Shown: positions 800 through 27,276 of the stretch, in pieces
How the letters are laid out: each line of letters begins with the position of its first letter
How positions within the stretch are numbered: the first letter of the stretch is position 1
Assembly (NCBI GenBank): GCA_003990765.1
Contig: RBNJ01000281.1
Coordinates: 1-34,252, forward strand
Reading direction: 5' to 3'
DNA length: 34,252 bases
From: Jimgerdemannia flammicorona
Lineage: Eukaryota
Notes under the pieces: generated by a model
Told to the model about the DNA's origin: nothing
What the model saw: only the letters and a program-made list of their open reading frames with translations
The model's database searches: none
Made by a program: the position numbers and the translations under genes

Positions 800-1853
800 A
801 TCAGAGGAAGGGTGTCCCGAGGAACCACACCCTAAAGAAAGCTCCTCAGACCATCAAAGCACAAGAAGATCTTATCCGAAAAGAACATCAGAAAGCCCAC
901 CAAGGACAGACAAGTATAGAAGAGAGGATTAAAAAAGAATATCAACATTGGCCCCACCTCAGAACTCAAGTTTGGGACATCATCCAGAAATATGACATCT
1001 GCCAGAAGTACCAAGGAAAGAAGAACTATTAAGCCCCTCTGCAACCGATTCCCCCACCCACTCACATCTTTCAAAGATGGGGAGTAGATGTAATTGGACC
1101 TCTACCAGTTACACCAAGAAGAAACAAATATATTCTTGTATTTGTAGAACATCTGACCAAGTGGCCCAAGGCTTTTCCAATGGAAATCACAGATGCCTTA
1201 ACCATTGTAGGCCTCCTCCATGGACTCACACTCAGATATGGACCTCCAGAAGAACTCATCTCTGACTGAGGCACAGAATTCATCAACAACATAATTACAA
1301 GTTATGCCCAAATCCACAAGATCCACCTCAAAAGGACCACATCATACCACCCCCAGACCAATGGCATGACAGAAAGAATGAACCAGACCATTAAGAGGGA
1401 CTTGTCCGAGTCAACTCTACTAATTGGGACCTCTGCTTACCTGAGATCCTGTGGGAAATTTGGAATACCCCTGCCACATCCACCAAACAAAAGCCATTCG
1501 AAATGATGTTTGCCAAGAAAACCAGAACTGCTGACCATGAGAATCTCGGAGACCTCCTCAAGAAGACAGAACAGTTACGAAATCAAGCCCAGGAAAGACA
1601 AAAGAAATACTATAACCAAAAACAGAAGGATCAGGAGATCAAGATTGGAGATCAAGTCCTAGTTTGGAGAAGTATAATTGAGACAAACTTTGCCGCCAAA
1701 CTGGAATCAAAATGGGAAGGACCTTATTTTGTATACAACATCAGAGGAACCAGCATCTATTTAAGAAGCATGGATAGATGAACCCTGAGAACACCAGTAC
1801 ACATCAATCACCTCAAGATATACCTCTTCTCACACCATAAATCAGAGAGTTGA
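796..1853 (+). pseudogene. Integrase of element A, separate ORF
   Basis: Starts at ATG 796. Contains an HHCC region (HQKAHQG...DICQ), WGVDVIGP, SD*GTEF, YHPQTNGMTERMN and KWEGPY, ending VHINHLKIY...*. Has in-frame stops and one frameshift near 1400. Confidence 0.9.
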
Positions 1854-2349
1854 CAACCACCTCCAAACTCTTGTTCTCAGTTCCCTCCAAGCCCTACCAG
1901 TTCCCCTGCCTCAGTTCTGGGAACCCAATGGAACCTATCTTCAGAGAATCCAAGTTCATCAAGAGAACCTCACCCTGGCTGAGAGATTACTCCAGGTCCA
2001 CCAGCTGCAGGCATATTATACAATTGGAGAACAATTGCAGAATCTTCCTCTCCCAGACCTAGCCTATATCCAAAACACCACTGGCCTGAACAGAAGGAAC
2101 ACTACTGCTGCAGACAGACTATACACCATATATAAACGAAATCCTTCTGCCTTAATCCAGGCCCAGTTTTCTCTGAATGACCTCCAAAGAATGACTCTAC
2201 CCACCTACCTCAGCATTATTCACCAAGTGGAGACCCTATTTTCTGAGGAAGAAGAAGAGCCCCTGGAATAGAGTGACCGCAGCTCAGATGATGATGATGG
2301 AACAGGTATAGATGCAGAAGCTGCTTATGTCTATTGGGATGATGACTGA
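1837..2349 (+). pseudogene. Accessory 3' ORF of element A, unknown function
   Basis: The frame is open from ATA at 1837 (probably a mutated ATG, M-N-Q-R) to TAG 2271 and continues to TGA 2349. Contains LQAYYTIGEQL...AADRLYTIY and an acidic tail. Confidence 0.7.
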
Positions 2350-2388
2350 AGAATAGTCTGGGACAGACTACCCTTCAGTGGGGGCTGA

Positions 2389-3854
2389 TGTAACAAGACC
2401 AAAACATACCACCTGAATTATAACTTAGCCAGATGATGCGAACAATTAGCATACTTACTCAGCATGATGTGACTTCCAGTATATCATAGTTACTCATGCC
2501 CACCACACTTATAATTAGCCAAGACACCAGATCAGAATTGTTTACCTGTGTCCTGAGGACACACTCATGTCTTGCAGACACACTCATGTCCTGTGGACAC
2601 ACTCATGTCCTGTGGACACACTCATGTCCTGCAGACACACTCATGTCCTGTGGACACACCTGTACCCAGAGGACACACCCAAACATTACCAAAGATAGCA
2701 AATCTATAGTTAGCCACATAGTAACCAGATAGTAACCAACTTGTATAAATTACCCCAGAGGCGCGAGTGAATAAAACTTCAGTCCGAATTGAAGTGCAAA
2801 CCAAAGAAGCCTCTAAAGGTTGGACAATTGGTCCTCTTATTCCCACTCCAGTCCACTTTCCAATATAAAGAAGAGTTTGTTACATTTTTGGTTCGCTTGC
2901 CAGATAAGCCTGAAGATTTGCCACCTAAGTTCAAGGAGAACTTCGCCGCCTTTTGAAGAACCCGCAGCTTAAAGGAATAAGCCACACTATTGGTACACTT
3001 GCCAGATAAGCCTGAAGAACCCTATCCTCCGTCTTTCCAAGAAAGCCACCTTGCTTAAGCCAGTTTCTGATGCAACTTCACAGTGATCCGTTCGCACAAA
3101 CAAAGCTAGTCTTTGACGTAACTTTGCCAAGAGACCCTTTTCCAAGGAATACCGCCAGTTGTTCGTATTCCCAGTAGAAGCCTGCTGATTCAGGAAGAAT
3201 CTGTGCCATCCCATTTCCCAGTTAGAGCCCACCGATTCAGGAAGAATCCACATCACCTGTCATTTCTAAGCTATCCGCCATATTCTCAGTTGAAGCCACT
3301 GATTTAGAAGAGTTCATGCCATCCGAGTTAATTCCCAGTTAAGCTGCCATTTTCAAGAAGTCTGCCAAATCTGCATCATCCACCACTTTCAAGTTATTCA
3401 CATTCCCTGTGAGCCCGGTATAGAAGAATCTGCACCATATGATTCCTAGTGAGCCAAATCGAGTTATCCGCCGAATTATCAGAACATCCGCATAAGGAAC
3501 CCGCCACGCTACACGAAGATCATCACGCTACACAAGATCGTCACACAGAAATCGCCCACCACCCAAGAAGGAGAACCGCTAAATTGCCAGACTGTCACAC
3601 ACAAGGAGATCATCACGCTACACAGAAATTGTGCTATTCCCAGTTGACCGAAGAAGGAAAAGACATACAAATCGCCGCTACACCCAGAGAACTGTCCCAA
3701 TAAGGAAATTGCTCGCACAGTATCCAGATCTTGACTATTATACCGCTAAATACCAAGAACATTTTGTTGCTTTTAACAAAGTAACTGGGGGCTCAAGCCA
3801 AACTACATCAACCCCCAACCTTGTATTTTGCCTCCATTGAGCCGGCACATTATA
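2389..3854 (+). repeat. 3' LTR of element A (about 1.47 kb)
   Basis: Begins TGTAAC and ends CACATTATA, a mutated CACGTTACA as seen in the 33681 copy. TATA at 2744, AATAAA at 2770. Confidence 0.88.
2547..2680 (+). repeat. 19-bp tandem repeat (CCTGTGGACACACTCATGT, about 6 units) in U3 of LTR A
   Basis: Directly visible head-to-tail units with no spacers. Confidence 0.92.
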
Positions 3855-4198
3855 ATAGATTAAATTGAATATACTAGATATATATTTCATCTATTCTTCA
3901 AATGATCACTAAGATACTTTATTTGCTATACAATCTTTACAGAAGTTATCATTAGGATATATTGCTAGTAATCCTCATATGAATTTATTCCTAATTATTC
4001 TTTTTAGACTTAATTTGTCCATATGTCCTAAGTATTAATACTATGTATTAGATATGTCAGATATAGTTATCATATATATAGAGGCTTTTATACTATTTAA
4101 TATACTATTGATTGCATAAAGATTGTCTTGTTTTAATACTATTATAATTTACTTAATATTTTTCAAACTATATACTATTACTCTTATTGAGTATATAT
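3855..4198 (-). pseudogene. Decayed Ty1/Copia fragment (GAG-pre-integrase region); target of elements A and B
   Basis: The minus strand reads T-*-Y-*-Y-L-G-H-M (WHxRLGH-like) and FCKDCIANK (CxxC). Confidence 0.6.
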
Positions 4199-6077
4199 TA
4201 TAACAATATCTTTGAAATCAGTGATATCAGAATTCAGAAGACTGTCTTGACTTTGTAAGCTACTAGTTACAAGTTGTGACTCAACTAAGACTCATCTTGA
4301 TCAGAAGATGATTCCTATCTAAACTTATAATAACTCATAATGAGTCCAATAGTATACTACTCTAAAGCAGATAACCTTACTCTCTGAACCAGAGGAGTAG
4401 ACCCTCAAGATATAAAAAGAAGTATCAAGAGAAGAAATACAAAGTATCAACTATATATAAAAGACTTACTACAAAACAAAATATCTGTCATCTGTCAAAT
4501 AGTAAGGTCAAGGAGCTACCCAGGTCCATTAGTTTAAGAATATATATTTACTGATATCAAGAGGGCATTGAGGTTATATATATATAAGAAAGACCTCTAG
4601 TCTGAACTTTTACATAAGAGACCTCTATCTCTATACTCTCAACTATCAAAAAATGGAAATAGGAATAACCACAGCTACTAAGTATCTCTGGATATAGTAA
4701 GAATATAAAAAGAAACATCACCTCTACTAATAATTCTCACAAGCCAGCTCCTAAGAAATTACAGACAATATATACATAGATAGATATTAACAAAAATTAG
4801 CCAAAAGAGTTTATCAGATCATCAGACATATATCCTGAACCATTCTCAATCTGGAATATGTCAAAATATCTGACATTTAAGAACTGACAAGCTGACATAT
4901 AGACCATCTTGAAGAAATGATTGCAGAAGAGGCCCAATATATCATTATAGTCAAGAGTGATGAGGGTCAAGATCTTTAGAATCTTATCCTAGAGAACAAC
5001 TCAGATTAGTTCATCTATGATCTGATTGTATTATTTCAAGACTCTTCTCTGAGAGTCTGCTCTCTCCAGAATCCCACAGATATTCCCTACTTTGTAGATA
5101 ACAATACCATTAACTAGAGATCTTAAAAGTAGAATGACTTTATGCTCTTTAGTAATATTATCAATAATGACTTAGAGAATAGTGGTGATCTATTTATCTT
5201 TTTAGAAGATGATCTCAACAACTTACTAAGAGATACAGAAAATAATTTGGCCAGACTCTCTGAAGAAAATGAGAAGAAGGATGAGAATGATATAATTTTA
5301 GTTATATTGAATTTTAAGATATATAGGGATAGTTCTATTAGTCAAATTAAGTAAGTTAGTTAGTTGGACAAATAGTAACTACATATTAACTAGCCAAAAT
5401 CATCACAAATATAAAATTAGCCTTATTCAGTTAGTTCATTACCTGAAATTTCAAAATTGTACTAATTAGCATCTATTAGTAATTGTGAGTTAAAATTAAT
5501 TATCTAGCCTTATATATAGCTTGGAAACTATATAAATACCCTCTGATCTATAGAAAATAAACCTCAGTCAATTAGTTTGCAATACTAACTTAAGTTCTGA
5601 AAGATAAGAAAGTCAAGTGTAAGAACTTTGAGAAAAGACTCCAAGAGCTAAAGAAATTACTCTTGCTATTGCCATTATAGAAAATTGGATACAAGACTAT
5701 GAAAAATCATCATGAAACTCAAGATACAAATCTGTCAGTCAAAATTACTATTGGAAAACAAGACTAAGGAAAAGACTTAGAAAAATTGCCAGGAAACTCC
5801 AGAACAACCTACTGGTACTGAAATTGGATACAAGATCTAAGAAATCTATCAGAAAACTCAAGAACAACATATGATATAAGTAATTGCCCTTTTAACATAT
5901 GATTTGAATAACTATCATGTAACCAATAACCAAAGACATGTGAACAGATAAAACAGCAGTTAAAGAGAACATTGAGTCAGAAATATAGTTGAAAATAAAT
6001 AAAAAATAGTATATAGATATTCAGTAACATATGAGTCATATATATCAAGAACTAAGATATATAAATTGCATGCTACA
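4199..6077 (+). repeat. 5' LTR of element B (about 1.88 kb)
   Basis: Aligns colinearly with 13741-14286 plus 20181-21623. Starts TATAAC (mutated TGTAAC) and ends GCTACA before the PBS. Confidence 0.88.
4340..5354 (+). pseudogene. Accessory ORF embedded in U3 of LTR B (about 335 codons)
   Basis: Starts ATG 4340 (MSPIVYYSK). Comparing the two LTR copies restores one reading frame containing LY*EF...QKLAKRVYQII and an acidic/coiled-coil tail. Most stops are explainable by transitions. Confidence 0.7.
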
Positions 6078-6080
6078 TTT

Positions 6081-6096
6081 TGGAGATATAACTGGG
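6081..6096 (+). promoter_or_regulatory. Primer-binding site of element B
   Basis: TGGAGATATAACTGGG lies 3 nt after the LTR-terminal CA, the same spacing as in element C. The tRNA is not assignable by eye. Confidence 0.65.
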
Positions 6097-6229
6097 AAAG
6101 TTTTCTAAAGACTTGGCCATTTGGCTCAAGAATCCAGCAGTTATTTATAGTGGAGGATTTAGAAGAAACTAGTCAGCAGTAAGACTAGGGCCATCAATAG
6201 TTTACTTCAGAAAGAGAAGCTTATATCAT

Positions 6230-9200
6230 TGTTAGAACAGCCCTTACCCTGTTTAGAACTAGTAGTCAGAAAACTAAATCAGAAGAAAGAAGTGATACAG
6301 ATTATGGTTTGATCTTAAAAAAAAGAAGATAACTCAGAAGACTATCTAAGTCTATCCAGATCCAAGGCCCAGAACAAGAAGAAGATTTTCCTGAAGATTA
6401 CTGGATTCTAATCTATAGAAGAGATTCAGACAGAAGTGACTACATTATTACTATCATTACTTAAGCCACTCTACTGGATTAAGCATATTTTGAAACATCT
6501 GAAGGAGAAGAAGACAACCATCCTTATCTTCCAGAACAAGAGAAAGATAATAATTGAAGAAGTTAACCAGACTACCTAAGAGATGAATTCAACCTTTATT
6601 ACTACTTAGGTAGTAATATAGATTCTTGATAAGATAAATAGAATTCTTTTGCTTCACAATAGCAAGAGACAGACAAACTGAACATTAGCTACATCAGTCT
6701 TATTCTAATTGTCAGAACCTCAGTACTCTGGTCCTTTATACTCTGATACTATTCACAAGAGACAAGAAGCTCTAGCCCTCTCAGTATCTTAGTATTTAGT
6801 GATTACTATCACTCAATTAGAGAACCACTACCATCAAGAACCTCTATCCCAGCTTTAATTAGAAGGGCCAGACTCCCCATATTCTCACCAAGATACTGCC
6901 TTTTGCCAGTACTACTAGTTCATCAAGCATCTCTACTATCTCTATCTCTATAAGTATCATTAAGAAATTCTACCCCAGAACTAGACTCAGATAGTAAAGA
7001 TGAACTAGACATAAGCTATCTTCAGGAATTCCATAGAGCAGACAGTGAGGATATCAAGGAATTCTTTGGAGAAATTGAAGTATAAGCAGTAGTCAAGTAG
7101 TAGAATATCCAGAGAAAGCTCAGAATTGTGAAATTACTTCTGAGATATTCAACCCTACAGAAGTATAACCAAGTAAAGCAAGTTGGAAGAGATAGAATAT
7201 ACCAAAAATCTTCAAGTAAATAGAGACCATATAGATAGATATAATATTTATAAAACCTAGCTCTATACTTAGATCAATGGTCTTGAGCACTAATGGGAAG
7301 TATAAGAAGCTTTAATCTATATGAGCCAAGCCACCAATAAAGCTCCAAAAGGTTTTTATTATTGAATTTAAGCTCAGATGATTAGGGCAAACTTGTAATC
7401 TTCAGTCTAACTAGCCTTGTCTAAACCACCTTTCTCAATAGAATATTCTCAAAACTTTGAAGACAGGTCATTAGAATGGGCTATTTAAGTATTGAGTAAC
7501 AAGTTGCTAGAGTATAAGAATGCTGAGAAGTAGACTATAGACTATCTCAGCAAGTTCAAGAATATCAAGAACCAGCTCAAGCTGAAACCTTAAGAACTTA
7601 TATAATAACTATAAAATAAGAGAATGTCTACTTGAGAGCCCAGTTGGCCAGCTATGAGATCAGACCCCCACTCTCAATTTCAACTCAATACAGGCAACAA
7701 TAGCAGCCCCCACTAAGAACTTAAGAAGACCCTATGATAATGCTCACTAAATAAATAAAAGACCTAGTTATTGTGATTGCTCAGTTAAAGAACTAAGAGA
7801 GAAGATAATAAGATTATTGTTGAGATAATAGACCAGACTACTGATAGTAAGATAACAGGAGTTCCATTCAGGCCCCACTGGTTACAACTGCAGATTCACC
7901 AGCAATAGGTTTCTATACTCTAACTTGCTTCAACTGTAGAAACCAAGATTACATTCAGAGGTTTTTCCTAAAGAAACAAACTCCATCCAAATACAGAAAT
8001 ATCAATCTCATTTAAGTAGATGAAGAGACTCAAAAAATATAAGAAAAAGCTACCTGACTTCATGATCAAGAGAATATCTATCCATACTATAAAATCTTTT
8101 TCTCTAAGATAACTTGAGATGTAGTATATATATTGACCAGAGAATGAGAAAGACCTCTAAGGACCCCACTTCCACCACCATTGCCTGTAACTATATCTAC
8201 AAGCAAACATCTAAGATATGGCCATTCTTTTTCAGATACTTCTCTGAAGAAGGACAAGATTGTCAGAGGAGACACCTCTGAATCAGAAGCTGGTCCATCA
8301 AGAGTATCAAGAAGTACCTCTCTATCTGATCTTGAAGAAGACAAATATATAAGTATAGAGTCCTCAGCTGATGAAATGTCCAATAGAAATAAGAGGATCC
8401 ATTATAAAAGACCTAGACATTAAAGAAGCAATAAGCCCCATGAAGCAGCATTACTTTGGAAACATCACTATATCCAGAATACAGGTCTCACAGTTGAACA
8501 AGTTCTCAAGAATATACTAGAGATTAGGTGAAAATTCCTAAAGGAAGTTAAAGAAGATATCAAGAGAATTTCTGTCCAAGGACTATATATACTAGAGCCT
8601 AGCACTATCTATGTAGTCTATGAATATCAATATTAAGAATATCAATCTATAAGACTAACTAATGAAAAGGTATATAGTGAGAATACCAGAATTCTTATTA
8701 ATACTGAAACAGCAGTTTGCATTATCACCCAGTGAATACTAGAAAGAATTGGATGGAGAATTGATGAAGACACCAAAGCAAGAGTTATTATGGCAGATGA
8801 ATCAGCATCTATCCCCCTTAGACTAGTCAGAGATATATCTATTTAAGTTGGAAAAAAGTCTACCTCAATATAACTTAAGCTATTGTAACTCTAGTAATCT
8901 CTTATAATCTGATTTTGAGAACTAACTAGTTAAACTAAGTTGGAGTCAATGTAGATATCAAGAAATAACTCCTGGTCTTCACCTTCTATAGATAAAAGCA
9001 TAAGGTACCAATTGAGTCAAAAGAATTAAGGAGAGCCAGTCAGGTCTCTAAGACAGAATAGTAAGGATATAGAGATATACTCACTATTATAGAGAATAAA
9101 GGTAAAGCAAATTTTCTACAAGAACTAGGAAGTGATTTTGATACCTCTAAAGACTCTGAAAGTAGTCAAGAAGACCTTTTTATCAGAGTTATTAATACTG

Positions 9201-12144
9201 AAAGCCTGGAAGCAAGTATTGATTAAGCTATTAATGAAGAAGCAGTACTTATATTTGAAGGACCATCTATACAACCACTCTTATCTCTGAAAGAAAATCA
9301 AATTATGCAAGCCATCTACCTAGGTATATATGAATACTATAACTGTTTCTACTCATCAAAAGATAATTGTAGCAACTGCCAAATTCTTAATCTCAACAAT
9401 ATTTTAATACTAGCAATCAAAGATTAAAATGAGCTCCAGTACTCAGATAAATATAACTACCCACTCTAAAGGCTTTCATAAAGACCTATAAGAAAAAGCA
9501 GAAAATTCTCTCTCACTAATCTTTGGAGATCCTCATAATTAAAGGCAATAATAACAGTACTTATACCATTATCTGAGCCCTCTAGATCACTCTACCTATC
9601 TATGATAAATATTGAAAGAGGTATTCAACAAGTAAGAAAATCAGACAGTAGAATGAGGAATTCATCAAGCAAGGGCACTGTGATTGTGGAAAACCCTTTA
9701 TCTATTACTAGTATAAATATCAAAGTATTTACCTCAGTAAAGATATCTATAAAAGCCAAGGATCCCACTTTGTAAGAACTTTGAATTTGCTAGACTTGTT
9801 GGAAATACAAAGAGATCAACCATGAAGAAGACTATAAAGTCAAGAACAAGACCTCTATCTAGAAGCTACTATTAGAAATTTATGTCATTATTTATTAATA
9901 TTACCAGTCACACCAAGATAAATAAGAAGTCAATCTTGTCTTCACCTTCAAAGAAGCCTTAGATCTATTTGGAAAAACTAGATTCAACTATACAAGAAAC
10001 CTAAAGACTTGAGTATATTGGCCATTATTTAAGTCAGAATATATGAAGTTCTCATCTGTAGTAGTAACTACTGAATTGACATTCCTCAAGACCCAGTCTG
10101 TCATCTAAGTCAAACTGCTCTCACCTTGGGCACAACCTCCTCTTGCACAAGTAGAAGGATCAGTAGGATATGACCTCTGTCTTCCCTATCAGGCAATGCT
10201 CTATCCAGGACTACTAGGATTTTTGACCTTCAAATCACACTTGCTATACCATCTGGATATTATGGACAACTGGCATCAAGATTATCTCTAGCAGTCAAAG
10301 AAATCATAGTAAAAGGAGAAATAATTGATTAGAATTATCAAGGTCCTCTGAAGGTCATTATTTGCAATAATAGTAAAAACTACTGAGTCTTTAACCCCTT
10401 GAAAGCCATCTGCCAAATTCTATTTATTAAGATATTACAGTCTACTTTTCAAGAGGTAAATCAACTAGACAGCACTAAGAGAGGACAAGGAGGTTTTGGA
10501 AGTATATATAAATAGAACTCCTCTATTACTACTCATTGAAGTTTACTTAACAATAGTAGCTAAGTTCTGATAAATAAAATCATATATCTGCCACCCTATT
10601 TAAGCAAAAGAAGATATCCTCCTTCAACTATATAAACAAAGAAGTCTTGATATATATCCATCTGTAGATACCAATAATCTGATATTTGAGTCATCAATAG
10701 AACTCCAAGAAAATTATCACCTTCTCCTGACTGAAGAATGAATCTATAATAGATATTATTAATCCACATTTCTGGGCTTTAAAGTAGTAATAGTCTCTAG
10801 AGGAATAATATTAAGATACTTTGAATTTCTGATAGATACCTATGAGAAAAAAGTCTTTGAATTTTTGAAAAATAGCAAGCTCTCTCTAGTGAGACTGATA
10901 GTACTAGAGAAAAAGACTCAATAATTAAAGCCATTGATATTGAGACAACTCTGACCAAGAATTAGCAATAGTAGATACAGAAGTTGATAGAAGAATATAA
11001 AGATATATTTACTATTATATATAATAATTTTTCACTATATCAATATAGAGAATATGCAATATATATAGAAGATATCAAACCAATCTAATAATATCCCTAC
11101 TGAATACTACACTACTTGATTGAGTTTAAATAATAATATATAGATGAAAAACTATGAAATAGAGTTATCAGACCCTCATTAAGCCTCTGGGCTTCACCAG
11201 TAATCATAGTATCAAATAAAAGAGACCAGACAAGAATAGTATGAATACCTCTAGATGCTATTTAGACTATGCAATATACTAGTCTTATTCTAGTAAATGA
11301 TGAACTATATATACTGAGACCTTGTTGGAAGAAATGTGCTAGTATTATAAATGATATAATTATCTACTCTAAGACATTTGAACAATACCTGTGAGATCTC
11401 TATGAAGTATTTGATACCATCTGAAACTCAGGATTTAGACTCAATACTATGAAATACTTCTTTAGAAAACACTAAGTTAAATATCTAAGATATATAGTTT
11501 TAGCCCAAGGAACTCATGCTGATCTGTGTAAGGTAGAGAAATTTAAGAATTATCCAACTTCTATCTCTATAAAGGAAGTTCTATCTTTTCTTATATTAGC
11601 ATCTCATTACTAGTAATTCATCCTAAGATTTTCAGATAAGACAGCTCTACCATATGATATCTCCAAAAAGGACCAACTATTCTACTGAAAGGAAGAACAG
11701 TAGAAGTAATTTGGCTTGCTCAAAAAGGCCCTCACCAAAGTCCCTATTTTAGTATAACCAGATTTTAACAAACCATTCATCTTGGCAACTGATGCCTCTG
11801 TCCTTAGACTTGGATCAATCCTATCTCAGCTAGATGATCAGAAGAAAGAATATATTATTGAGTATACTTGTAAGGCCACTAATGATATACAAGCAAACTA
11901 TAGAGCCACTAAGCTGAAATATCTTGTAGTAATATAGACTATAGATCACTTCAGACACTACTTCTTAGAAAAGAGATTTGTCCTTATTACTTACTATCAA
12001 GCTTTATAATAGTTGTTCAACAAACCAGAACCCTCAGAAATCTTTACCAGATAGATCATATCTCTACAAAAATATCAGTTTACTATTGTCTGTAAGAAAG
12101 GAGTTAAGAATTTCAATATTGATATTCTGTTAAGGATCTCATGA
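6230..12144 (+). pseudogene. pol: Decayed gag-pol of element B (Gag with CCHC knuckle, protease, dUTPase, RT, RNase H)
   Basis: CFNCRNQDYIQRF at ~7927; ILINTETAVCII (DTG-like) at ~8690; SPWASPV at ~11180; mutated YxDD at ~11345; LATDASVLRLG at ~11780; ends NIDILLRIS*. RT has an internal deletion near 11235. The start is approximate. Confidence 0.85.
10100..10506 (+). pseudogene. dut: dUTPase domain of element B
   Basis: Reads VKLLSPWAQPP..GSVGYDL, YYGQLASRLSLA, GEIID*NYQG and TKRGQGGFGS, matching dUTPase motifs 1, 2, 3 and 5. Confidence 0.85.
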
Positions 12145-13418: not shown

Positions 13419-13882
13419 ATAACTCAGCTCACTCCATCTGTATCATCACTATTGAAGAATAATAAATGCTTTCTTTAAAACTCAAGAAGCTAATAATATT
13501 GGAACTATTCTTAAGACCATCTATGTGACAGATATTACTACTAGAAATTGTCTCAGATTTTAGGAAAATCTATTTCTGAGAGGTTTGAACCCCCAGCTAT
13601 AATAATGAGAGCCCTCACCCTAGATAAGAATGGCCAGTTCTCATAAATATACCAATAGTTTATTCAAAAATGGAACTAAGACCTGCTATTTCTATATAAT
13701 CATCACTGCCAAGAATGACTCTAATTTTATAAGGAGCAGATGTAATAATAGCTTCAAAATCAGTAACATCAGAATTCAAAAGACCATCTTGACTTTTCAA
13801 GCCACTAGTTGCAAGTCTTGACTCAACTGTGACTCATCTTGATTAAAAGATAATTTTTATCTAAACTCATAATAACCTAAAA

Positions 13883-14006
13883 ATTAAAAAAAACTTATCT
13901 ATATAAGGCTATTTACTCAGAAAGGTAGTATCATTCTTATATAAGGATCATGCTAATCTTCTCTATATCATTTCAATTTTTTCAAGTATCAGCAGTTTCA
14001 AAGAAC
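13883..14006 (-). pseudogene. U6: U6 snRNA retrocopy, full-length and mutated
   Basis: The minus strand reads AAATTGAAATGATATAGAGAAGATTAGCATGATCCTTATATAAGAATGATAC, the U6 core with only transitions. It has a 5' GTTC-TTTG-AAAC (UUCG hairpin remnant), a 3' T-run and a degenerate 13-bp TSD, and is absent from the 5' LTR. Confidence 0.9.
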
Positions 14007-14367
14007 TTGATAACTTAAAATGACTCATAATGAGCCCAATAGTATACTACTCTAAATCAGATGACCCTACCCTATGGACCAAAAGAGAAGATCCTCAAAA
14101 TATAAAAAGTAATATTAAGAAAAGAAGTTCTAAATATCAACCACAAATAAGAGACTTACTATAAAATAAAATATCTACCATCTGCTAATAGTAAGGTCAA
14201 GGAGTCACCCAGGTCCATCAGTTCACAAACAGATATTTACTGATATTAAGAGAGTAATGAGATTGTATATAAGAAGGACCCCTAGTATCTTTCTCCAGTA
14301 ACATTCAGGTTACACAACCCTTTGATGACATTTTCAACACAGTTTCTGGAGAAAAGCTACTAGTATC

Positions 14368-16398
14368 ATGGCGACCAATGAGCATCTGGAGGTGCATACT
14401 GGGCAGGGTGGCCCTGGAGCATTTGAATGGCAGCAAGTGGGGAGAGGCCCCGGCTTGGAGGGAAGTATGAGGGGCCTGCTGGCAGGGGGCTGTGGTGGAG
14501 GAGGGGGCAGAGCTGGAGGTCAAGGGTCTGGCAGAGTGAGCTTTGCAGAGAAGGTGAAGGGGGGTCGGTAGGGAGCTGGACTGGAGAGCTGGTTGAGAGG
14601 GGGGAAGGTACCGGTGGCGGCTTCCAGGTAGCAGCCTCTTGGGGGTACCTCTCTAGTGGGCCATAGGAGTGGAGCTGGGGGGGTAGCAGCTGGGGCGGAG
14701 ACTGCTGATGGGAGTGTGATGGGTGATCTGGAAAAAAATTTAGATGGGACTGCTGATGGTGAGCCGAGCAGTGGGAAGAGCATGAGGCCCGGGGACCTGG
14801 CGGATGGTGTAACAGGACTGGTGGTGGCTCCGTTACTCAAGAAGTCGATCTCGGCGTTCACAGTCATGCTGTGCTTCCGGGGCTTAGCAGTGATGGCAAA
14901 AATGGTGTTGGGACTTATCGCTAAGCAGGTGGTGGGAGCGGCTTCAGTGAAGTTTCTGAAGGGACTGAAGGGGGTGGAGGTGGGATTTGAGGAGGTTGAA
15001 CTGCTGGAAGAGGCACTGAAGGTTGGGTTGGTGGTTGGGGAGGTGTATGTTCTAATGGCGAGGTATCTGAAATGGGATCCGAGGGTGGTCCAACTGCTGG
15101 TGAAGGGAGTACTCATGGTGACGGTGATGGAGACAAGGAAGAGAGTGGAGAATGTCATGGCAGAGTACAGAGAGGTGGTGGATATCAGATTCAGGGTCTG
15201 GGAAGGGACCATGCTCAGGACTGGGGATGTGGATGTGAGGATTCAGCTGGCTGGGAAAGAGGCTACCAGAAAGACGAGGGACTGGCCTTCAGTGTTGGTC
15301 TGGGGAGCTTTTCTGTGCAAGGTGACATAGGTGAAAGGAAGTGAAGAAGAGGAGGAAGATTTATTGGAAGTACTGGAGGAGCTGGATGGGGCTGTGGACC
15401 GGCGAGCTAAGGTCTGGAAGGCTTTCGAGGAGTCGATGCTCCTGGAGGTGGTGGATGGAAAGAGGATTCGAGTGGACAAGGTGCAGTGGGAAAGGGCTCA
15501 GGGGTGGAAGAGGCAGAAGGATCTGCTGGCTAAGCTGGGGGGGGGACCACAGAAGGATGCAAGCAGGAAGACAGGTGCAGAAGGGGCCGGAGCGAGTGTC
15601 TGGGTTGGTGAGAGGAGTGGGAACGATGGGGCAAAGTCAGGAAAGGCTAAGGAGGCGAAGATTAGTGACCTATATGCTGACGGCACCTTGGAGGTTTGGG
15701 ATGAAGTCTGGGAGAATTCCCCCACCCCCTCCCCTCTTATCAGGCATGGCCCGGCTTCCAGGAACAAGTCTGGGGAGGACGTGATGATGCTGGAGACCCA
15801 GCAGGTGAAATTCAGTATTCCGGAGGTATTGGATGGGGACCGAGTAGAGGCAGCAGGGGAGGAGGAACTGGTGGATGTCCCGGAGGTATGGGATGAGGAT
15901 GCAAGTGTGGGAGCTGACACCACGATGCTGGAGGGAGGGAGGCTGGCGACCCCTGGTGGAAAGGAGGTGGGGAACCTACTTTGGATGTGCCGGATGATGA
16001 ATAACCTGGCAGCAGAAGAGCTGGGGGAGGTGGACTTGTGTGGGATGGGTGACGAGCACTAGATGAGAATTTTGCAGGGGGAAGGAGTGGCGATGGCGCT
16101 GAAGGCGGAAATCCTTGCAGTGTATCTGGAGAAGGAAGGGTACGAGGTGGATAAGGAGAGGGAGGCGGAGTTGGCGGTGGTTGCTGGGGAGAAGGCTGAG
16201 TACTGTTGAAACCGGCATCATGGGTTGCAGCTTTGGCAGGAGGCTTGCATCAAGTACTGGGAGGAGTTTGAGGAGAAGGCTGATGAGGAGATGAATGAGC
16301 TGTTGGCTGGACTGGAGGCTCAGAGGGCTGAAGAGGAGGAGGTGATGGCTGAACATAATCTGGACACAGCGCAGGAAGAGAGGGGCATGGAGCAGTAG
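14368..16398 (+). pseudogene. LINE ORF1
   Basis: ORF-track segments 14368, 14656 and 15331 share one frame, broken only by TAG codons. Contains the SFAEKVK motif typical of L1/Tx1 ORF1 N-termini. Confidence 0.75.
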
Positions 16399-16428
16399 AG
16401 ATTGATTGAGAACAAACCGTATTTTACT

Positions 16429-19400
16429 ATGAACAGTATAACCAATATTTTTTCTTTGAATGTGAATGGGCTGAGGGGCACGGTTCGACACAGGAACATT
16501 TTTATTTGGTTGAAGGGATTGGAGGCCGATCTCTTCCTCTTGCAGGATGTCAGGTGCGAGGATGATGCTGATAGGATGGAATGGACTAGAGAATGGGGTG
16601 GTATGGCAACTTGGAACAGCAAGGTTGGGATTCTGGTTCAGAAAGGCAGAGGGGAGATAAAGGATGTGAGGAGCTGGGGGGAGAGACTGGTCTGGGGGGA
16701 GTGGATTTGTGCAGGTTGGGAGCTGGTCACCATTGGCTCCTGTTACTGCCCTGCTGTGCAGGGTGAGCATGTGGATTGGGTGAAAGAGCTCCTGGAGAGT
16801 GGGATCCTTGCTGAAGCTGGGTTGGATATGCTTGGAGGAGATTTCAATATGGTTTGGAATGTACGGTTGGATAGAACTGATGGAGGACGGGGTGCAGAGA
16901 GCAGGAGTGGGGGGTTGGTGATGTGGGAGGAGGTTGAATGGCTAGGAGCACTGGTGGATGCTGGTAGGGAGCACTGGGGGGACAGGAGGGTATATACGCA
17001 TTGGGCTGGAGGTCTGGGGACAAGGATTGACTGGATTCTGATGACCGACTATTGGGGCCACAATGTTTGGAAGATATTAGAGGTAGAATAGTATCTGTGG
17101 TCAGATCACTGGGGCCTCTTGGGACAGGGGTGTTTTGGGGGAAGTAGGGATGGGCCTGGACATTAGTGCCTAAATTCCTCCTTGTTGGATGATGAGGCCC
17201 AGTGGAAGGTGTGGGCAGAAGACATTCAGCTGAAGGTGGCGAATTGGTGGCAGGAAGGGGCCACAATTGGGGTTTGGTGGATGAGAATAAAAGAGATGGC
17301 CAGGATGTATTGGAGCAAGGCTGGCAGAGTGGCTGGGAAGCAGCGAAGGCAGAAAGTGCATTGGGCTTCCACTCGATTGGCTAGGCTCCTGGAGGAGGGG
17401 GCAAGACTGGCAGCAGTGGAGGGAGAAGAGGATTGGAGAATGTCAAGGGTGAAGATGGAGGTTGAGGAACTGCAACAGGTGCTACAGGAAGAGGAAGAGT
17501 CAAGAGTGCAAGGCCTGGTGGCATGGCTTCATTGGCAGGGGCTGGAGGAAGGGGAGAGGCCTTCCAAGTTTCTCACAAGGACACTTTGAGTGAGAAGGGT
17601 ACAGCAGCAGTGGGAAGGGGTACTTGGCTCGGATGATGTACTAGTGCATGGTGTACAGGATATCCTTAGAATGCTGAAGGCGAAATAGAGTGGATTGTGG
17701 AGTGAGGAGGAGGGTGGGGCAGATGCTACAGCCATTGACCAAACATTAGAGGATTGGCACCCACCACAAGCTGAGGGACTAGGTGACCTGGTGATGCCTG
17801 TAAGGGAGGAAGAGATCCACCAGGTTCTTGCCGCGACAGCCTCGGATACAGCACCTGGGGAGGATGGCCTCCCTTGGGACTTCTGGAAGCGAATGGTTGG
17901 AGTCCCGGGCATATTGGGGGAGTTGACAGCACTGTGTAACTCTATATTGCAGTCAGGGAGATGGGTGGGGGAGCAAGACCTTGGGCTGGTGATGCTGCTT
18001 TATAAGAACAAGGGAAGGTGAGAGGATTGGAAGAACTGGCAGCCGATAATGTTGCTAGATATGGACAGGAAGTTGGTGACTAAGGTGGTGGTCGCAAGGC
18101 TACAGAAGGTAGTCCAGCAAATTGTGGGTGGTGAGCAGAGGGGCTTCATAGGAGGTCGGCTTATTAGAGATGGCACAGCCTGGGTACATGGAGTTATTGA
18201 AGGTGCTCAAGCCTGTGGACTAGATGGGTGTCTTGTCTTCTTGGATCAGAAGAAGGCTTATGACTGGGTGCGGCGAGTCTGGCTGGCGAAAGTATTAGAT
18301 AGAATTGGAGTTCCAGGCCCATTTTGGTCAGCAATGGTCAGCCTACTGGAAAGGAGTAGGGCTGCGCTTGTATGCAATGGGCATCAAGGGGTGGCTTTCT
18401 CTCTGGGTAGGGGAGTGCTCCAGGGGGACCCACTGTCCCCCATTTTGTATGCTCTTTCCTTGGAACCTCTGATGGACAGGATTCGGTGGAAGATCGTGGG
18501 GCTCTCTATCTATGGCATTGGCTGGAAGGTTGGAGCCTTTGCAGATGACATGGTGGTTGGCTTGGGAGTGACTGTGGATGTCGAGGAGCTCCGGAAGACA
18601 GTGGAGTGGTATGAGGAGAACTCTGGGGTGAAGCTGAATTGGCACAAGTGTGAAACAATTGTGCTGGGCAATGGCTTGGTGGGCGGAGAAGTTATTGGAA
18701 CAATTGTCCCCACCGGAGAGGCAGTGCGGTACTTGGGCATCTATTTGTCGGTCTATGGGTCGGTTTTGCCCAGACTGTGGTGGGAGCAGAGGATTGGAAT
18801 TTGGGAGGAGGACCTGCAGAGTTGGGGGGGTCGACACTTCTCTCTGGCAGGAAGGATCTCGATTTTGAATGTATACTGGTTGCCAAAGCTGTGATATTTG
18901 GCCTATCATCTGGACTTCCCAGCCTGGGTAGTGAAGAGATTGGTGAAGGTGGCCAAGGGATGGATTTGGGCTGGCAGATGGAGTCAGATTGGTTGGGAGA
19001 CTTTGTCCCTACCGGGGTGAGAGGTGGTCTTGGGCTGGTGGACTTCCCCAAATGACTACACTGCTTGAGAACTTGGTAGCTGAGGAGGGTGGTGGAGTTG
19101 CATGGAGGGGGCTGGATCCCCCTGCTGCAGAAGATATGGGAGAGGCAGACATCGCCTAGAGGCTTGACTGGTGATCTTCTTTCATTGGTTGGGCTTCAGA
19201 ACACTGCACAACTGAGATATAAAGGCTTCTGGTGGGGGATAGCCAAGGGGGCACACCACATTGGTATTCACTGGCAAGGGGATGAGGGGGAGAGGGCTTG
19301 GGACCCAGTGATGTGGAGATGGGATAGCATTCTTCTGGGAGGCATGCCTTTACTGGAGTTCAACATTAGTGATAGCATCAAATGTCAAAGGGGCCCAGGC

Positions 19401-20084
19401 CAGGATCTGTGGCCTAGTGGTTGGCAAGGAGTTGGAATTGGTGAGGAGTGAGACTGGTAGGGGGTTTGGACCTGGAGTGCCATAGTGAAGAATTGGATGC
19501 TGCCGAAGTACTGGGTAGTCTGGTGGTGTATACTGAGGAGGAATGTGATGCTTAACTTCCACTCAGGACACCTTGTGGTAGGGGGCTGCTTTGACTGCGA
19601 GGAGTGCCATAATATTGGGCAGGAAGGGGGATTGGTACAGACACTGGAACATTGGCTAGGGGAGTGTGAAGTGTTGGGAGACTTTTGGCAGGCTATTGGG
19701 GACCGCTTGGGGGTAAGGCATAGGGGTGATGATGTATGGGGGAGGTGAGAGGACCTGAGAGATCAATTGATTGGAGGGGTTGGGGAAGAGTGGATTACTC
19801 TAGACTGGATGTTGGCTATTTGGATTGGGCTGGCCAGCCACTGGCTATTTGTATTTGAGGAGGAGAAGCGACCGAGCTTAGGGAGCCGGTTAGCAAGGTG
19901 GTGGTTCCTTATGGAGGATACCTTAACAGGCTGGTGGCTTGATTGGGGGCTGCAGGGGAGTCAGAGGCGCCACTTGGTGGTGAAAATCTGTGGTCAGAGT
20001 GGTGGGAGGGTTGGAGTTATTGGTGAGAGGATGGTCTTTATACGTAACAAGGTGGGGTGGGGCCACCTGATGGGGATCGGATAG
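16429..20084 (+). pseudogene. LINE ORF2: AP endonuclease, reverse transcriptase, C-terminal Cys/His domain
   Basis: Contains SLNVNGL, GGDFN, RIDWI, SDH, APGEDG, DQKKAYD, QGDPLSP, FADD, YLG, GGLGL and CFDC..EH...EC. Has in-frame stops and a frameshift near 19012. Confidence 0.95.
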
Positions 20085-21623
20085 TGGGTGGTGATATTGT
20101 ATACTCATTCATAGACTGGTAATAAAGACAGAGTCTAAGGGACTATAAACAAAAAAAAAAAAAAAAGAAGGACCCCTAGTCTAAATCTCTATATAAGAGA
20201 TCTCTATCACTATACTCTCAACTACTGAGAAATAAAGACAAGAATTATCACTATTATTAAGTGCCTCTAGATGTAATAAGAATATGAGAAGAGATATCAC
20301 CTCTACTAAGAATTCTTACAAATTAGCTCTTAAGAAATTTCAGACACTATATATATATATAGATAGATATAAATAGAAATTAGCCAAAAGAGTTCATCAG
20401 ATCTTCAGATATATATCCTGGACTATTCTCAATTTGAAATATTGCAAAGTCTCTGATATTTAAGAACTGGCAAGCTATTATATAGACTTTCTTGAAGAAA
20501 TAGTTATAGAAGAGGCCCAATCTATTATTACAGTTAAGAGTAATGAGAGTTAAGACCTTTGGAATACTATCCTAGAAGACAACTCAGATCAGTTCATCTA
20601 TGGTCTAATTGTATTATTTCAAGGCCCTCTCCTGAGAGTCTGCTTTTTTCAGAATTTCACAGATATTCTCTACTTTGTAGATAATAATATCATTAACTAG
20701 AGATCTCAAGAGCTATGTCTCTTAATAATATCATTAACAATAACTTAGAGAATAGTGACAACTTACTTATTTTGTTAGAAGATGACCTCAATAACTTTCT
20801 GAGAGATGTAGAAAATAATTTGGCCAGACTTTCTGAAGAAAATGAGAAAGAGAATGAGAATAATATAATTTTAGTCATATTGAATTTTAAGATATATAAG
20901 GATGGCTTTATTAGTCAAATTGATAAGTTAGTTAGTTGAACAAACAGTAACTGCATATTAATTAGCCAAAATTATCACAAATATAAAATTAGCCTTATCT
21001 AGTTAGTTAGTCACCTGAAATTCCAAAATTATATTAATTAGTATCTTTTAGTAATTGTGAGTTAAAACCAATTATCTTGTCTTATATATAGCCTAGAAAC
21101 TGTATAAATACCTCCTGATCTGTAGTGAATAAACCTCAGTACAATACCAACTTAAGCTCTAAAAGATAAGTATAAGAACTTTGAGAAAAGACTCTAAGAG
21201 GTGAAGAAATTACTCTTACCACTGCTACTATAGAAAATTGGATACAAGACCATAAAAAATTATCATGAAACTGAAGATATAATTCAGTTAATCAAACTAC
21301 CATTAGAAAACAAGACTAAGAGAAACCCCTATAAAACTTACCAAAAAAACTCTAGAACAATCCACCACTACTAAAATTGGATATAAGATCCAGAAAACCT
21401 ACCAAGAAACTCTAGAATAATATATGATACAAGCAATCACCCTTTTGATATATAATTTAAATAATTATCATATAACTAATAACTCAAGATATATGAACAG
21501 ATTGAATAGCAGTTGAAGTAAACATTGAGTTAGAAATATTGTTGGAAACAAACAGAAGATAATATAGATATTCAGTAGCATATTGAGCTAAGTATATCAA
21601 GAACTAAGAAATACAACATTATA

Positions 21624-21780
21624 TATTTCTTTATTACTACAGACAATCATTTTTCTGATTGAAAATAGATTTTGCCTATTTTTGGAATATATAGTATATT
21701 CTGAATTATATTAGCAGACTTTGTAATAGTTTTATAAAGATATATATTAATATTTTCTCTTTCTTAAGTATATATAATAT
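21624..21780 (-). pseudogene. Decayed Copia fragment (post-protease region), continuing into 3855-4198 across element B
   Basis: The minus strand reads IQNILYIPKIGK-(N)LFSIRK, resembling the Copia nVLyVP..NLlS motif. Confidence 0.5.
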
Positions 21781-22173
21781 TATTATTGTAAATATAGAGT
21801 ATATACTAGAGAAAGAGAGAGAGAGCAGAGTATTGTTTATTATTCCAGATAGTATATATATATATATATATATTTACATATTGAGTGACCTAACTCTAAT
21901 ATGATATAGTTATATATATATAAGTTATATTATTGAGATATTAAAATAATAAAAATTTCAATACTACTGCTAAACAAGATTATATAAAATGATATAATAT
22001 AAGTAGGAATATAATATAACTAAGTAATATCTGCAAAATACCTACAAATATACTAAAAGAATATAAGAATCTATAGTGAAAATAAAGGATATAGATAGGT
22101 CTTATTGGTGGAAAAACTCAAATATAGAGAAGAGATAAGATTGCTTAATCAGATACTAGTATATACCTATTTC

Positions 22174-24285: not shown

Positions 24286-24753
24286 TGTAACGTAGCAGAT
24301 ACTTACTCTTGAAAGTACGTCAGATTTCTGTATCTTGAAAACTTGACCATTCTGACTCTCACAGAGTCTCTTGAAATTGTAGGGGAGGGTGGGTGAGTTC
24401 AAAGTGTATCTGCCCACAGGCTTACTAGTTCCTTTACTATCTCTTTGCTTTTGAACTATTTCGATCTGAGGTTTATTCACTCGAAGATACTGGGTTATTT
24501 ATACAAGTTTGCTAGCTATGAGATAGCTACTGAGTTATGCGGCTAAGTTATGAGTCATTTAGACAATGTCTAGAAATTTAGACAATGTTGAAATGCTATA
24601 CTAAATCAGGGTGTTCGATTTGAATAATGTCTAAGAATTTAGACAATGTCGAAATCGAAGACTGCTAACTATAAGGCTATACTACTTTGGGACTGGGTGT
24701 GATCAAGTATCTATTCTCTATTTCCTTCTTCCAAATTTGGCTATACCATTACA
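24286..24753 (-). repeat. 3' LTR of element C
   Basis: Direct repeat of 32568-33035, preceded on the minus strand by PPT-like CAGGAGGAAGT. Confidence 0.97.
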
Positions 24754-25597
24754 ACTTCCTCCTGAATAGATGGTCTCATCTCTGGGGCATCTATTCAAAC
24801 TCCCAGGCTTCAACCATCTGTATGGTCTTGTACTGTGCAATTTGCTGTATGACTGTTTCTCAATGATGTCTTCTCACTTTCTCGAAGTCGGTGGGGGTTA
24901 CTCCTCTCAGGTGGTCTATTTGTAAGAGGGTTACTTTTTAGAGTAACTGTTACATAGTTCTAGAAGGGTTTTTTGGATATTCTGGATGTTCTGGAAGACT
25001 GTTTTCTTATGGTCAAGATCAATATCATATGGAGTACATCCTCTACGCTTATTGATTTCAAGATCAGATTGACATCTCAACCAAAGTCCTTTTTTGGACT
25101 AGTTCTGGATGTTCAGGATTTTCCGTATTTCAGAAAGTTCAAGAAACTAAGACCAGCTTAGTTGAATTGGTGTATCGCTGCAGACAATATCCAATTAGGA
25201 AATTTCGTGATGGGGTTAGGAGTAGGACCTAACAGGGAGCGGATTTACTTAAGTGTGGTTTGTGGGTTATAGAATAGGTTTATTTGCTATTCATGATATT
25301 GCTATACTAGGAGTATTTGTGTGAAGGAGTATTGTGGAGAAGTATTCAGGAATGTTCTTGTGTATTCGAGTCTGAGATTCTGAGGTCTGGGGGAGGGGGT
25401 ATTTATACTAGTGAGGGGCTATCTGAACTATACTGAATATAGGTGTAGCACTAAGTGCCTTGCTGAGTCGGAATGCAGTCACGTAGTACAAGTGTGATCT
25501 GATATGTCAAGAGATCGTCTGACTGCTGAGTCAGTTCACAGTCACATTATACAAGGCTAATCTATCTATACTATGACTGCTAGACTATTTATAGGTC

Positions 25598-26752
25598 TTA
25601 GGCACTATCTGGGTAGTCTTCGATGACATCACCATCGATTGCATCATCTCTGATGAAGTAGTCATCTAGGAAGAGTGGTTCGCAGATTACTTCTCCTTGT
25701 TGGCTGAGGTAGTAATACATTGGAACTTCATCTCCATCCCACAGGATAGCATTGTCTGTCTCGTAGGCTGGATAAGGTGTTGGTGGACAAAGAATGGGTG
25801 TATTGTCTTCGCTTTCATCAGATTCACTATCTGCATACCTTCTATAGGTTATGGCACTATGAGTTGTGGGGTTATAGTATGCTGGCAGCTGTGGTTCATG
25901 TCGCTCGTACTCGGGTGGTGGAGTGGTTGGTTCGATCTCAAGGGTTGTCTAAAGGTACAGGTTGTATTCTCCAGTCTCTTCATTGTAATTGAAGTAATCA
26001 GGGGTAAATGCGGGTTGGTATTCATGCCAGTGGTCATTGTCCCAATAAGTCTCATATGCAGTTATGAACTGTTGTAAGTTCATTGGCAAGGTTGGCGGAG
26101 TGATCAGGGTTGGCAGAGATCCTTGGCTTGAGGTCATGTCAGCATCAGAGGGATCATTGTCTTCTGCTTCATCTTCGTCAAAGTGGATTATATCATAGAC
26201 ATCCTTTATGGCGTATCTGACTTGAGGCATTTGTAGAATATAGTCATCAGGGTGCGGGAAGGTTCTGTCTGTAGTCTGGACGTATTCGAGATACTTGTGG
26301 TTGAGTTCTTGTATCATGTCATCAATTTGGCCGTAGGACAGGGTAGCAACCATTCCGCTGGTAGTAACTCGGAGGCGGGGAATAACAGTGCTGTACTCAT
26401 AGAAGAGTTCTCGATGTTTGCGGGTGATGAGCTTCTGGTGTTGAGACATCTGGGTAATGTCTGTATCATGATGGTGTTCGACCATGTCTTCCAGGAGGCG
26501 GCCAATCTGGTAGTAGCTTGAGATTTGTCTGATTTGGTAGGCCTTGCTAAGCATGTTCAGGGCGTTCCATCGGGCTTCCACAAAGTAGAGAGGTGCCAGG
26601 CTATGGATATTTATGAGGGGCAGAGGGGGTGTGGCTCGGTTGACAATGGCATTCCAAATGTCAGCACGGATATGGTTGTAGATCTCGGTGGTCATGTTTG
26701 TGTGTTTGGAAGTTGTGGTTGTTGTTTGTTTTGGTTCTCTGATTCGACGCAT
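25598..26752 (-). pseudogene. Second accessory 3' ORF of element C, unknown function
   Basis: A 267-aa ORF (ISSYYQIGRLL...QKLITRKHRELF). A protein-like acidic/Pro-rich reading continues past TAG 25949, with one frameshift, to TAA ~25598. Confidence 0.75.
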
Positions 26753-26784
26753 CTCGGTGCTCGGTATATATGCATTTAGTCCTA

Positions 26785-27264
26785 ATTGGTAAGATTCTGT
26801 TTGTATAAATCTTGTGTTCCGTGACTTTGTATTAACTCAGCTTTGTGTGCTGTGACTTCGGTTTGACTCAGCTTTGTGATCAAGCAGGTGATTTCCAGAT
26901 TTGTTCAGAGGTCACATGTAATTTCAGTGGCTTGGAGGTTGTGCACTTACACTATTGCTGATTCATCTTCTCGGAATAACTTGTGGATCCTTTTGGTGAT
27001 AGTGATCTGTGAGTGAGAGAGTTGACACTCGGCAATCCAGTCCTTCTTGGTCTTTGCTGGATCCTGATTGAGCACCTGCCCAAGCTTGAAGTACTCTTGG
27101 AATTCTGCCCAATATTGATAGGCTCTAAAGTACGAGATCCAAGAGAGATGAGTCTGCACAATACTCTGAATATCCTCATAGTATACCTCTATGGTCGGAG
27201 GCTTGGTGGTGTGCCATTGTCTTTTGATGGCTCTTTGGGCAGCACTAGTGATCTTGAGTGCCAT
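26785..27264 (-). pseudogene. First accessory 3' ORF of element C, unknown function
   Basis: ATG lies just after the integrase stop. Contains FQEYFKLGQVL...ITKRIHKLF; the reading continues past TAA 26947. Confidence 0.72.
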
Positions 27265-27276
27265 CACAGTACTTTA

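Follow-up and report, generated by a model that had tools for sequence, protein, structure and literature searches.

The locus described here raises the question whether retroelements of different families can share a protein gene beyond gag and pol. It is contig RBNJ01000281.1, a stretch of 34,252 nucleotides (nt) that was analysed over its full length and is referred to as the window. The window is a retroelement nest in AT-rich, eukaryotic surroundings and contains three Gypsy/Ty3-type elements, A, B and C. In a preliminary description four open reading frames (ORFs) had been aligned by eye and read as one family of accessory proteins carried by all three elements: a frame behind pol of element A (ORF-A), two frames in element C (C1 and C2) and a frame in the 5' long terminal repeat (LTR) of element B. 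We find that ORF-A, C1 and C2 are homologous. A fourth family, D, is represented by a solo LTR that is nested in C1 and interrupts it, and C2 lies within this LTR. For the frame in B, membership is unproven.

Homology of ORF-A, C1 and C2

Pairwise BLASTP matched the same region in each of the three proteins, weakly but consistently, with expectation values (E) of 0.002 for A and C1, 6e-4 for A and C2 and 0.015 for C1 and C2. A hidden Markov model (HMM) was built from nine external fragments of the A family and run against all six-frame ORFs of at least 30 amino acids (aa) in the whole window (n=546). C1 (E=9.8e-4) and C2 (E=0.01) were ranked directly behind A, and the next ORF in this ranking followed at E=0.47. 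Profiles from which one family had been left out recovered the missing member in each case: A plus C1 found C2 at 2.9e-5, A plus C2 found C1 at 6.5e-7, and C1 plus C2 found A at 2.1e-3. As a control, composition shuffles were scored with alignments that were rebuilt without the target. Five such tests were run, and in every one of them all 2000 shuffles stayed below the score of the real sequence. In hhalign, Met48 of C2 (counted in the stop-to-stop frame) pairs with the start Met of the A family. The profile ranks, the leave-one-out matches, the shuffles and the Met alignment establish homology of the three proteins along a collinear core.

This core comprises about 105 aa and is collinear from the shared start Met in all three proteins. 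The Met is followed by a helix, a P-x-P-L-P turn and a long helix that ends in Q-x-x-x-Y-[YF]-x-[IL]-G, and then by two short helices with the pattern [KR]-[RK]-x-[HY]-x-[LI]-[FY]. Identity of the core between families is 13-19%. Comparison of the family with gag of element C by hhalign gave E 0.87, and thus no relation. The core that had been seen by eye in four ORFs is therefore borne out by profile comparison for three of them, and not for the frame in B.

The B frame (4340-5354, in the 5' LTR) contains about 14 stops in about 264 codons. By two results it is not established as a homologue, and a gene carried by all three families is to this extent not supported. Against the family profile the frame came 19th and 23rd among 684 tiles, at E 1.7-1.8, and DNA shuffles were as good in 22 of 500 and 10 of 500 cases. 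The motifs that had been quoted for 4340-5354 actually come from the copy in the 3' LTR (20172-20420), where they lie in two frames. When B was compared with D by blastn and tblastx, the TATA region alone was matched. Since B is the most decayed element, a loss of signal is expected, and we regard homology of its frame to the family of A, C1 and C2 as unproven rather than refuted.

ORF-A (1837..2349, + strand) has 170 codons plus stop. Its first 15 nt are shared with the end of pol, which is read in a different frame, and the ORF occupies the spacer from the end of pol (1851) to the polypurine tract and LTR start (2389). In the window copy the start codon is replaced by ATA; Met is found there in all eight A-family relatives that reach the N-terminus, and at the same position in P0012, a relative of C2. 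The window copy also has a premature TAG (2269-2271), where the relatives are open. The tail is acidic and ends in YWDDD, an ending present in three of three A-family sequences that extend that far.

The A-family relatives (P0002-P0010) were obtained as 4 matches among 44 candidates and by a profile search of 1.84 billion representatives at E<=1e-3. The profile search gave six matches, five of which are true A-family fragments of 65-157 aa. The sixth, P0011 (E 3.2e-4), is a repeat protein of 671 aa with five repeat stretches; it was discarded because it matched the N-terminal stretch rich in Leu and Pro. P0009 leaves the family after about 69 aa, probably via a frameshift, and was excluded from later alignments. 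Seven external A-family fragments are still open at 45-84% mutual identity (overlaps of at least 40 aa). The first 41 aa of P0006 correspond to the 3' end of pol read in a third frame (68% identity, E 1.3e-20); thus, the contig of P0006 has the same junction of pol and ORF. The location 3' of a Gypsy integrase, already pointed out in the preliminary description, is accordingly found in A, in C and in one external contig. Relatives are few, about eight among the 1.8-5.8 billion proteins covered, and all of them are metagenome fragments without names. Metagenome and viral-contig scans made for genomic context yielded no further relative, and there was no host-protein relative among the 1.84 billion representatives.

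A solo LTR of a fourth family within C1

C1 starts on the minus strand with an ATG 9 nt past the double pol stop TAA TAA. Its 5' part (26952..27264) has 104 codons, including the upstream copy of a target-site duplication, and is followed by D (24921..26951, - strand), which is 2031 bp long. Beyond D the frame is in register again (24860..24920, - strand; IDHLRGVTPTDFEKVRRHH) and runs to a stop at 24862-24860, about 100 nt ahead of the C LTR. The rejoined C1 has about 122 aa and ends in ...KVRRHH* without an acidic tail. C1 had been described as one ORF from 27264 to 26785, of which 26951-26785 belongs to the inserted LTR.

The termini of D, TGTAAG...CTTACA, form 6-bp terminal inverted repeats, and D is flanked by a 5-bp duplication, AATAG (26956-26952 and 24920-24916). 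There are no terminal direct repeats of its own, and no similarity to pol was found within D. It carries a TATA box, GTATAAATACCCC, and AATAAA, matching the LTRs of A, B and C; the TATA motif (GTATAAAT ACCCC) is located at 25401..25408 (- strand) and the same motif is present in those three LTRs. Taken together, the inverted repeats, the AATAG duplication, the LTR promoter motif and the lack of terminal repeats show that D is a solo LTR. It represents a fourth family and has split C1 by inserting into it. C2 belongs to D, and the proposed duplication of the gene within element C is thus not upheld.

Two caveats concern the reconstruction of C1 across D. When the resumed piece of 19 aa was scored alone, 193 of 2000 shuffles were as good; a likeness of this piece to the A-family helix DLQRMTLPTYLSII, noted by eye, was unsupported on separate scoring. 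A soil-metagenome contig (run X1) joins 24916 to 26957 with four letters between, a length that an empty site would be expected to have. This contig is weak evidence, its shorter side of 27 letters being below the bar of 30-31.

Two further readings of the metagenome data were set aside. Summed word depth over 24996-26983 was several-fold above both flanks in four of four runs; this would suit a high-copy LTR, and was not used because contig depth cannot rank parts. Loose contig ends at 26910-26951 were rejected as a breakpoint because a small repeat at this place is variable. The leader of D contains a 31-nt tandem duplication (26812-26873), situated ahead of the C2 ATG, where metagenome contigs vary. 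An extra base separates the pol stops from the C1 ATG (at 27272/27273) in every contig of runs X2 and X3 that covers the site and in a minority of those in X1. Therefore, C1 is out of the pol frame in many copies, like ORF-A in element A.

C2 (25598..26695, - strand) is an ORF of 365 codons that ends with TAA at 25600-25598 and is interrupted by a premature TAG at 25949-25951. It begins 256 nt from the start of D and stops 190 nt ahead of the TATA box (25408-25401). Being upstream of this box, C2 is situated in U3. The shared core is followed in C2 by an acidic, aromatic-rich region of 229 aa. P0012 (one match from one candidate) starts with the same Met as C2 and is 90% identical to it. P0001 (one match from 188 candidates) is open across the position of the TAG in C2, with 64% identity over 250 aa. 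The start of C2 is most likely at 26695 rather than at 26752.

Element B has a layout like that of D. Its LTR starts at 4199, an ATG follows at 4340, the broken acidic frame ends at about 5354 and the TATA box is at 5530. In both D and B the frame ends about 180-190 nt before the TATA box. The simplest account would be that A and C have the plus-strand priming site, which sets the start of the LTR, 3' of the gene, and that D and probably B have it 5' of the gene. With the LTR boundary upstream of the ORF in D, and by its layout probably also in B, the ORF falls within U3, so that each LTR receives a copy of it.

Protein properties and candidate roles

ORF-A and C1 are located on the sense strand between the integrase on one side and the polypurine tract and 3' LTR on the other, which is the position of an ORF3 in the generic sense. 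The gene is the last sense-strand gene of the element, with its ATG within 15 nt of the pol stop in A and C. A membrane segment was not found: the maximal Kyte-Doolittle mean over 19 residues was <=1.14 in eight of eight sequences. The gene is therefore not an Env-like ORF3, in agreement with the earlier statement that the proteins have no evident signal peptide or transmembrane helix.

The earlier view of a lineage-specific helical protein without a named domain also holds. Pfam returned no family at E<=0.01, Chromo included, for the three window ORFs (four frame pieces) and four relatives. The best match in a sequence search of the PDB was an unrelated protein (E 0.054), and no known helix-turn-helix (HTH) family was found. 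Fold searches of PDB and viral structures did not rise above chance level, with 5.5 and 5.7 as the best Z values and Foldseek at E>=0.26. The best E in the viral fold search of BFVD was 0.26, with Rev of simian immunodeficiency virus (SIV) at 0.79. For the known retroviral accessory proteins (Tas, Rev, Tax, Sag, Vpr/Vpx) Pfam gave no match; Vpx came up by fold at Z 5.0-5.2, with a root mean square deviation above 7 A. The Atlas model of P0002 has a predicted local distance difference test score (pLDDT) of 0.76, and its nearest structures, at chance level, are helical-hairpin dimerisation domains with TM-scores <=0.37. A homodimer prediction for the core, which scored 0.55 while one control reached 0.39, was set aside.

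Acidic tails had been reported for three of the frames. They are present in A and C2 and absent from C1, and the B frame is a broken frame rich in D, E and N. The tail is thus very variable in length: C1 lacks one, that of the A family has 37 aa and that of C2 has 229 aa. The core ahead of it comprises about 105-135 aa. The tail of P0002 has a net charge of -15 over its 37 aa, and that of C2 a net charge of -43 over 229 aa, with 14% W/F/Y. Readings of the tail as a W-acidic kinesin-light-chain motif, a PPxY late domain or an SH3 PxxP ligand were dropped; P0001 does not conserve PPEY, and the spacing required for PxxP is absent.

We consider it quite probable that these ORFs represent a functional accessory gene of some kind. 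With somewhat better than even confidence, we read them as a real, maintained and fast-evolving third gene (ORF3), with a soluble product, of a clade of Gypsy/Ty3 elements that have no chromodomain and, where the region is visible, bear a dUTPase. The protein would be translated from the 3' end of the element RNA, by ribosomes that reinitiate past pol or on a subgenomic message. The helical core would bind DNA or some component of the element, and recruitment of a host factor would fall to the acidic-aromatic tail. As to the role, our leading guess, a tentative one, is an acidic-tailed regulator or adaptor that acts on the LTR of the element itself in the manner of a transactivator. We would guess an order of functions in which the transactivator is followed by an integrase or chromatin tether, a Rev/CERV-like RNA factor and, last, no function. 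A more doubtful extension of the leading guess is a whole clade with genetics like those of complex retroviruses. Its members would encode their own LTR transactivator or antagonist of host silencing, equipped with an acidic tail of the activation type, and a shift of the priming site would have put the gene into U3 in some lineages.

Several points weigh against a maintained regulatory gene. The relatives are gene-caller ORFs from short contigs, so that open frames and Met starts are partly selected by the way they were collected, and every copy in the window is damaged. The AlphaFold models are all-helical and weak, with a mean pLDDT of 53.1 (5 sequences) and 59.2 (11 sequences); residues 31-105 reach 71-85. 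HTH folds (sigma region 4, Mu C, DnaA domain IV) appear at Z 3.7-4.6 among chance-level rows. The core is near-neutral (isoelectric point 6.3-9.6) and not basic, and nothing ties it to DNA binding. Furthermore, C1 without its acidic tail is a poor fit to an activation-domain mechanism.

Integrase C-terminal modules such as chromodomains, and the Ty5-Sir4 system, target integration. The protein could likewise be an integrase partner or targeting factor that links the pre-integration complex with chromatin, with its tail binding basic host proteins such as histones. Pol ends after a GPY/F-like motif without a chromodomain, the ORF occupies the position of that domain and, in two families, begins no more than 15 nt from the stop codon of pol, and the tail is strongly negative. 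However, the conserved Met of its own suggests a separate protein and not an extension of integrase, the gene in D is separated from pol by an LTR boundary, and C1 has no tail to contribute. We consider a targeting factor unlikely.

We give even less credence to a Rev/CERV-like factor, that is an oligomerising helical protein which would aid export, stability or packaging of unspliced element RNA. Reportedly, CERV of Cer1 is a precedent for a Rev-like factor in a retroelement. The small size and helical nature of the protein would suit this role, as would the helical-hairpin neighbours of the Atlas model, if only at the TM-scores given above, and the Leu-rich N-terminal stretch with its conserved P-x-P-L-P turn. 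No arginine-rich or other recognisable RNA-binding motif was seen, however; the likeness to an export signal is by eye, and the match to SIV Rev is one of the chance-level results of the viral fold search. That the ORFs have no function, being a decaying leftover, chance frames in the spacer between pol and LTR or a captured host gene fragment, would agree with the broken window copies, the few and fragmentary relatives and the low identity of the core between families, but is very improbable given three-way homology across elements whose RT-RNase H domains are 43-45% identical, a conserved start and end, frames that stay open at about 50% divergence and the lack of a host-protein relative in the profile search.

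The retroelement nest and comparable systems

Element A runs into the window from base 1 on the plus strand and contains reverse transcriptase (RT)-RNase H and integrase (Pfam). The 3' end of its pol (1395..1851, + strand), with the integrase C-terminus KWEGPYFV...PVHINHLKIY, was placed by Pfam rve/rve_3 upstream, tblastn to the integrases of C and B and three-frame translation. A premature in-frame stop is present at 1779-1781; the frame continues through ...PVHINHLKIY... to the true end, TGA at 1849-1851. A candidate polypurine tract, agtgggggctga (2377..2388, + strand), was read from the sequence as a purine-rich stretch that abuts the LTR. The 3' LTR (2389..3851, + strand) starts with TGTAACA and has its TATA box, GTATAAAT, at 2743. 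Its end at 3851 was fixed via a second, inverted A-family LTR end (33675-33909), reading ...GGCACGTTACA. In the R-U5 part of this second LTR an Arg/His-rich frame of 185 codons is open (33698-34252, - strand) and runs off the end of the window. The counterpart in the LTR of A itself (3283-3851, 84% identical) is not open, and the frame is probably due to chance.

The 5' LTR of element B (4199..5750, + strand) starts with T[A]TAACAATATC, has its TATA box at 5530 and a U3 of about 1.33 kb. Its 3' LTR follows a purine tract, aaggagcaga, and is found in two parts on the plus strand, the first at 13741..14271 (TGTAATAATAGC) and the remainder from 20165 to about 21303, split off by the insertion of a 5.9-kb long interspersed nuclear element (LINE). 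The LTR length of B is 1.55 kb. The LINE (14272-20164) is GC-rich and encodes an APE endonuclease (16399-17088) and an RT (18022-18891). It has 54% GC in a setting of about 30% GC, with a G-over-C skew of +0.32 to +0.52 on the coding strand over 6 kb. A copia remnant is present at about 22-23.5 kb. Element C is complete and lies on the minus strand, with gag, protease, dUTPase, RT, RNase H and integrase between its LTRs. The 3' LTR (24286..24753, - strand) is 468 bp long, reads TGTAATGG...GTTACA and has a purine tract, aggaggaag, ahead of it. The 5' LTR (32568-33035, - strand) has the same length and is 94.9% identical. Integrase and the end of pol (...LKKYYGQ, TAA TAA at 27279-27274) occupy 27274..28530 on the minus strand (Pfam Integrase_H2C2/rve).

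A, B and C are related yet distinct, with RT-RNase H identities of 45% (A/C) and 43% (A/B). A dUTPase between protease and RT was found in C (29798-30541, - strand; Pfam E 4e-24) and likewise in B (10207-10503, + strand; tblastn E 4e-12). Past the integrase a chromodomain is absent in the Pfam scan, and pol stops just beyond the GPY/F-like motif. The four LTR types A, B, C and D range from 468 to 2031 bp, start with TGTAA and end with TTACA (or a decayed form of these), and have the promoter block GTATAAAT[AT]CCC...AATAAA in common.

The observed/expected ratio of CpG in element B (4199-13740) is 0.00 over 9.5 kb at a GC content of about 31%. In A, C, D and the LINE this ratio is 0.27-0.50. 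The two LTRs of B are 84% identical, and their differences comprise 157 transitions against 24 transversions. This pattern looks like methylation-driven C-to-T decay, or decay similar to repeat-induced point mutation (RIP), that has run to completion. The complete to strong depletion of CpG in the elements points to a CpG-methylating host. Bdelloid rotifers, which also harbour elements with extra ORFs, are not known to methylate CpG. Soil-metagenome runs contain thousands of fragments that are 85-99% like the region. Mucoromycota clusters in the Atlas, at 0.76, give no more than a weak lead to the host.

Among known systems, the sag gene of mouse mammary tumour virus (MMTV), a vertebrate retrovirus, is located within the U3 of an LTR and codes for a type II membrane glycoprotein. 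The arrangement in D, and by layout in B, is alike in that a complete ORF lies inside U3 upstream of the promoter in every LTR copy, and hence also at the 3' terminus of the genomic RNA. In contrast to Sag, the protein described here has no membrane segment, and there is no relation in sequence or predicted structure. Tas/Bel1 of foamy viruses are small 3'-proximal transactivators with an acidic C-terminal region. The combination of a folded part and an acidic C-terminal region is similar, and Tas/Bel1 may be a functional analogue, but there is no match in Pfam or by fold, and C1 has no acidic part. Chromoviruses (Tcn1-like) reportedly carry a chromodomain directly past the GPY/F module of integrase. 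The position in the element is the same, whereas the product here is predicted to be all-helical, is encoded by a separate ORF with its own Met and has no match to Chromo.

Non-env ORF3s as such form a known class, and the present family matched none of those that could be compared. Plant elements of the Retand type reportedly carry extra ORFs as well. For the bdelloid rotifer elements Vesta, Juno and TelKA, which are dUTPase-bearing, family-specific non-env ORF3s of many kinds are described, often with no function that could be assigned, and those identified are a GDSL lipase, a DEDDy exonuclease and transmembrane or coiled-coil proteins (PMC5408684). The likeness consists in an extra sense ORF after pol of a dUTPase-bearing, Gypsy-like element, which is family-specific and does not encode an envelope. 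By description the two differ in that no such enzyme, transmembrane or coiled-coil domain is found here. For the rice Retrosat2/RIRE group, about 10% similarity is reported for ORF0 and more than 60% for ORF1 (PMC3485330). ORF0 is comparable as an orphan extra ORF that evolves far faster than pol, as does the core here in relation to RT-RNase H. However, ORF0 lies upstream of gag-pol in elements of another host kingdom, and the sequences are unrelated as far as compared. A description of a complete ORF in the U3 of Gypsy elements was not found in literature searches that covered open-access papers.

Extra genes are what parts simple retrotransposons from retrovirus-like agents, and few non-env accessory genes have a known role. 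The window contains an orphan protein family that spans several diverged Gypsy families and a clear example of a complete ORF in the U3 of a retrotransposon LTR, and the apparent duplication within one element is shown to be a nested solo LTR. If the doubtful extension to genetics like those of complex retroviruses were true, every LTR, solo LTRs included, would have a protein gene by its promoter, and hundreds of regulator copies would be scattered through the genome. Retrotransposons would then have a counterpart of MMTV sag or foamy-virus Tas, in a soil eukaryote that methylates CpG and may be an early-diverging fungus. Should the protein regulate transcription, RNA fate or integration, it would provide a new handle on how such elements escape from, or make use of, host control.

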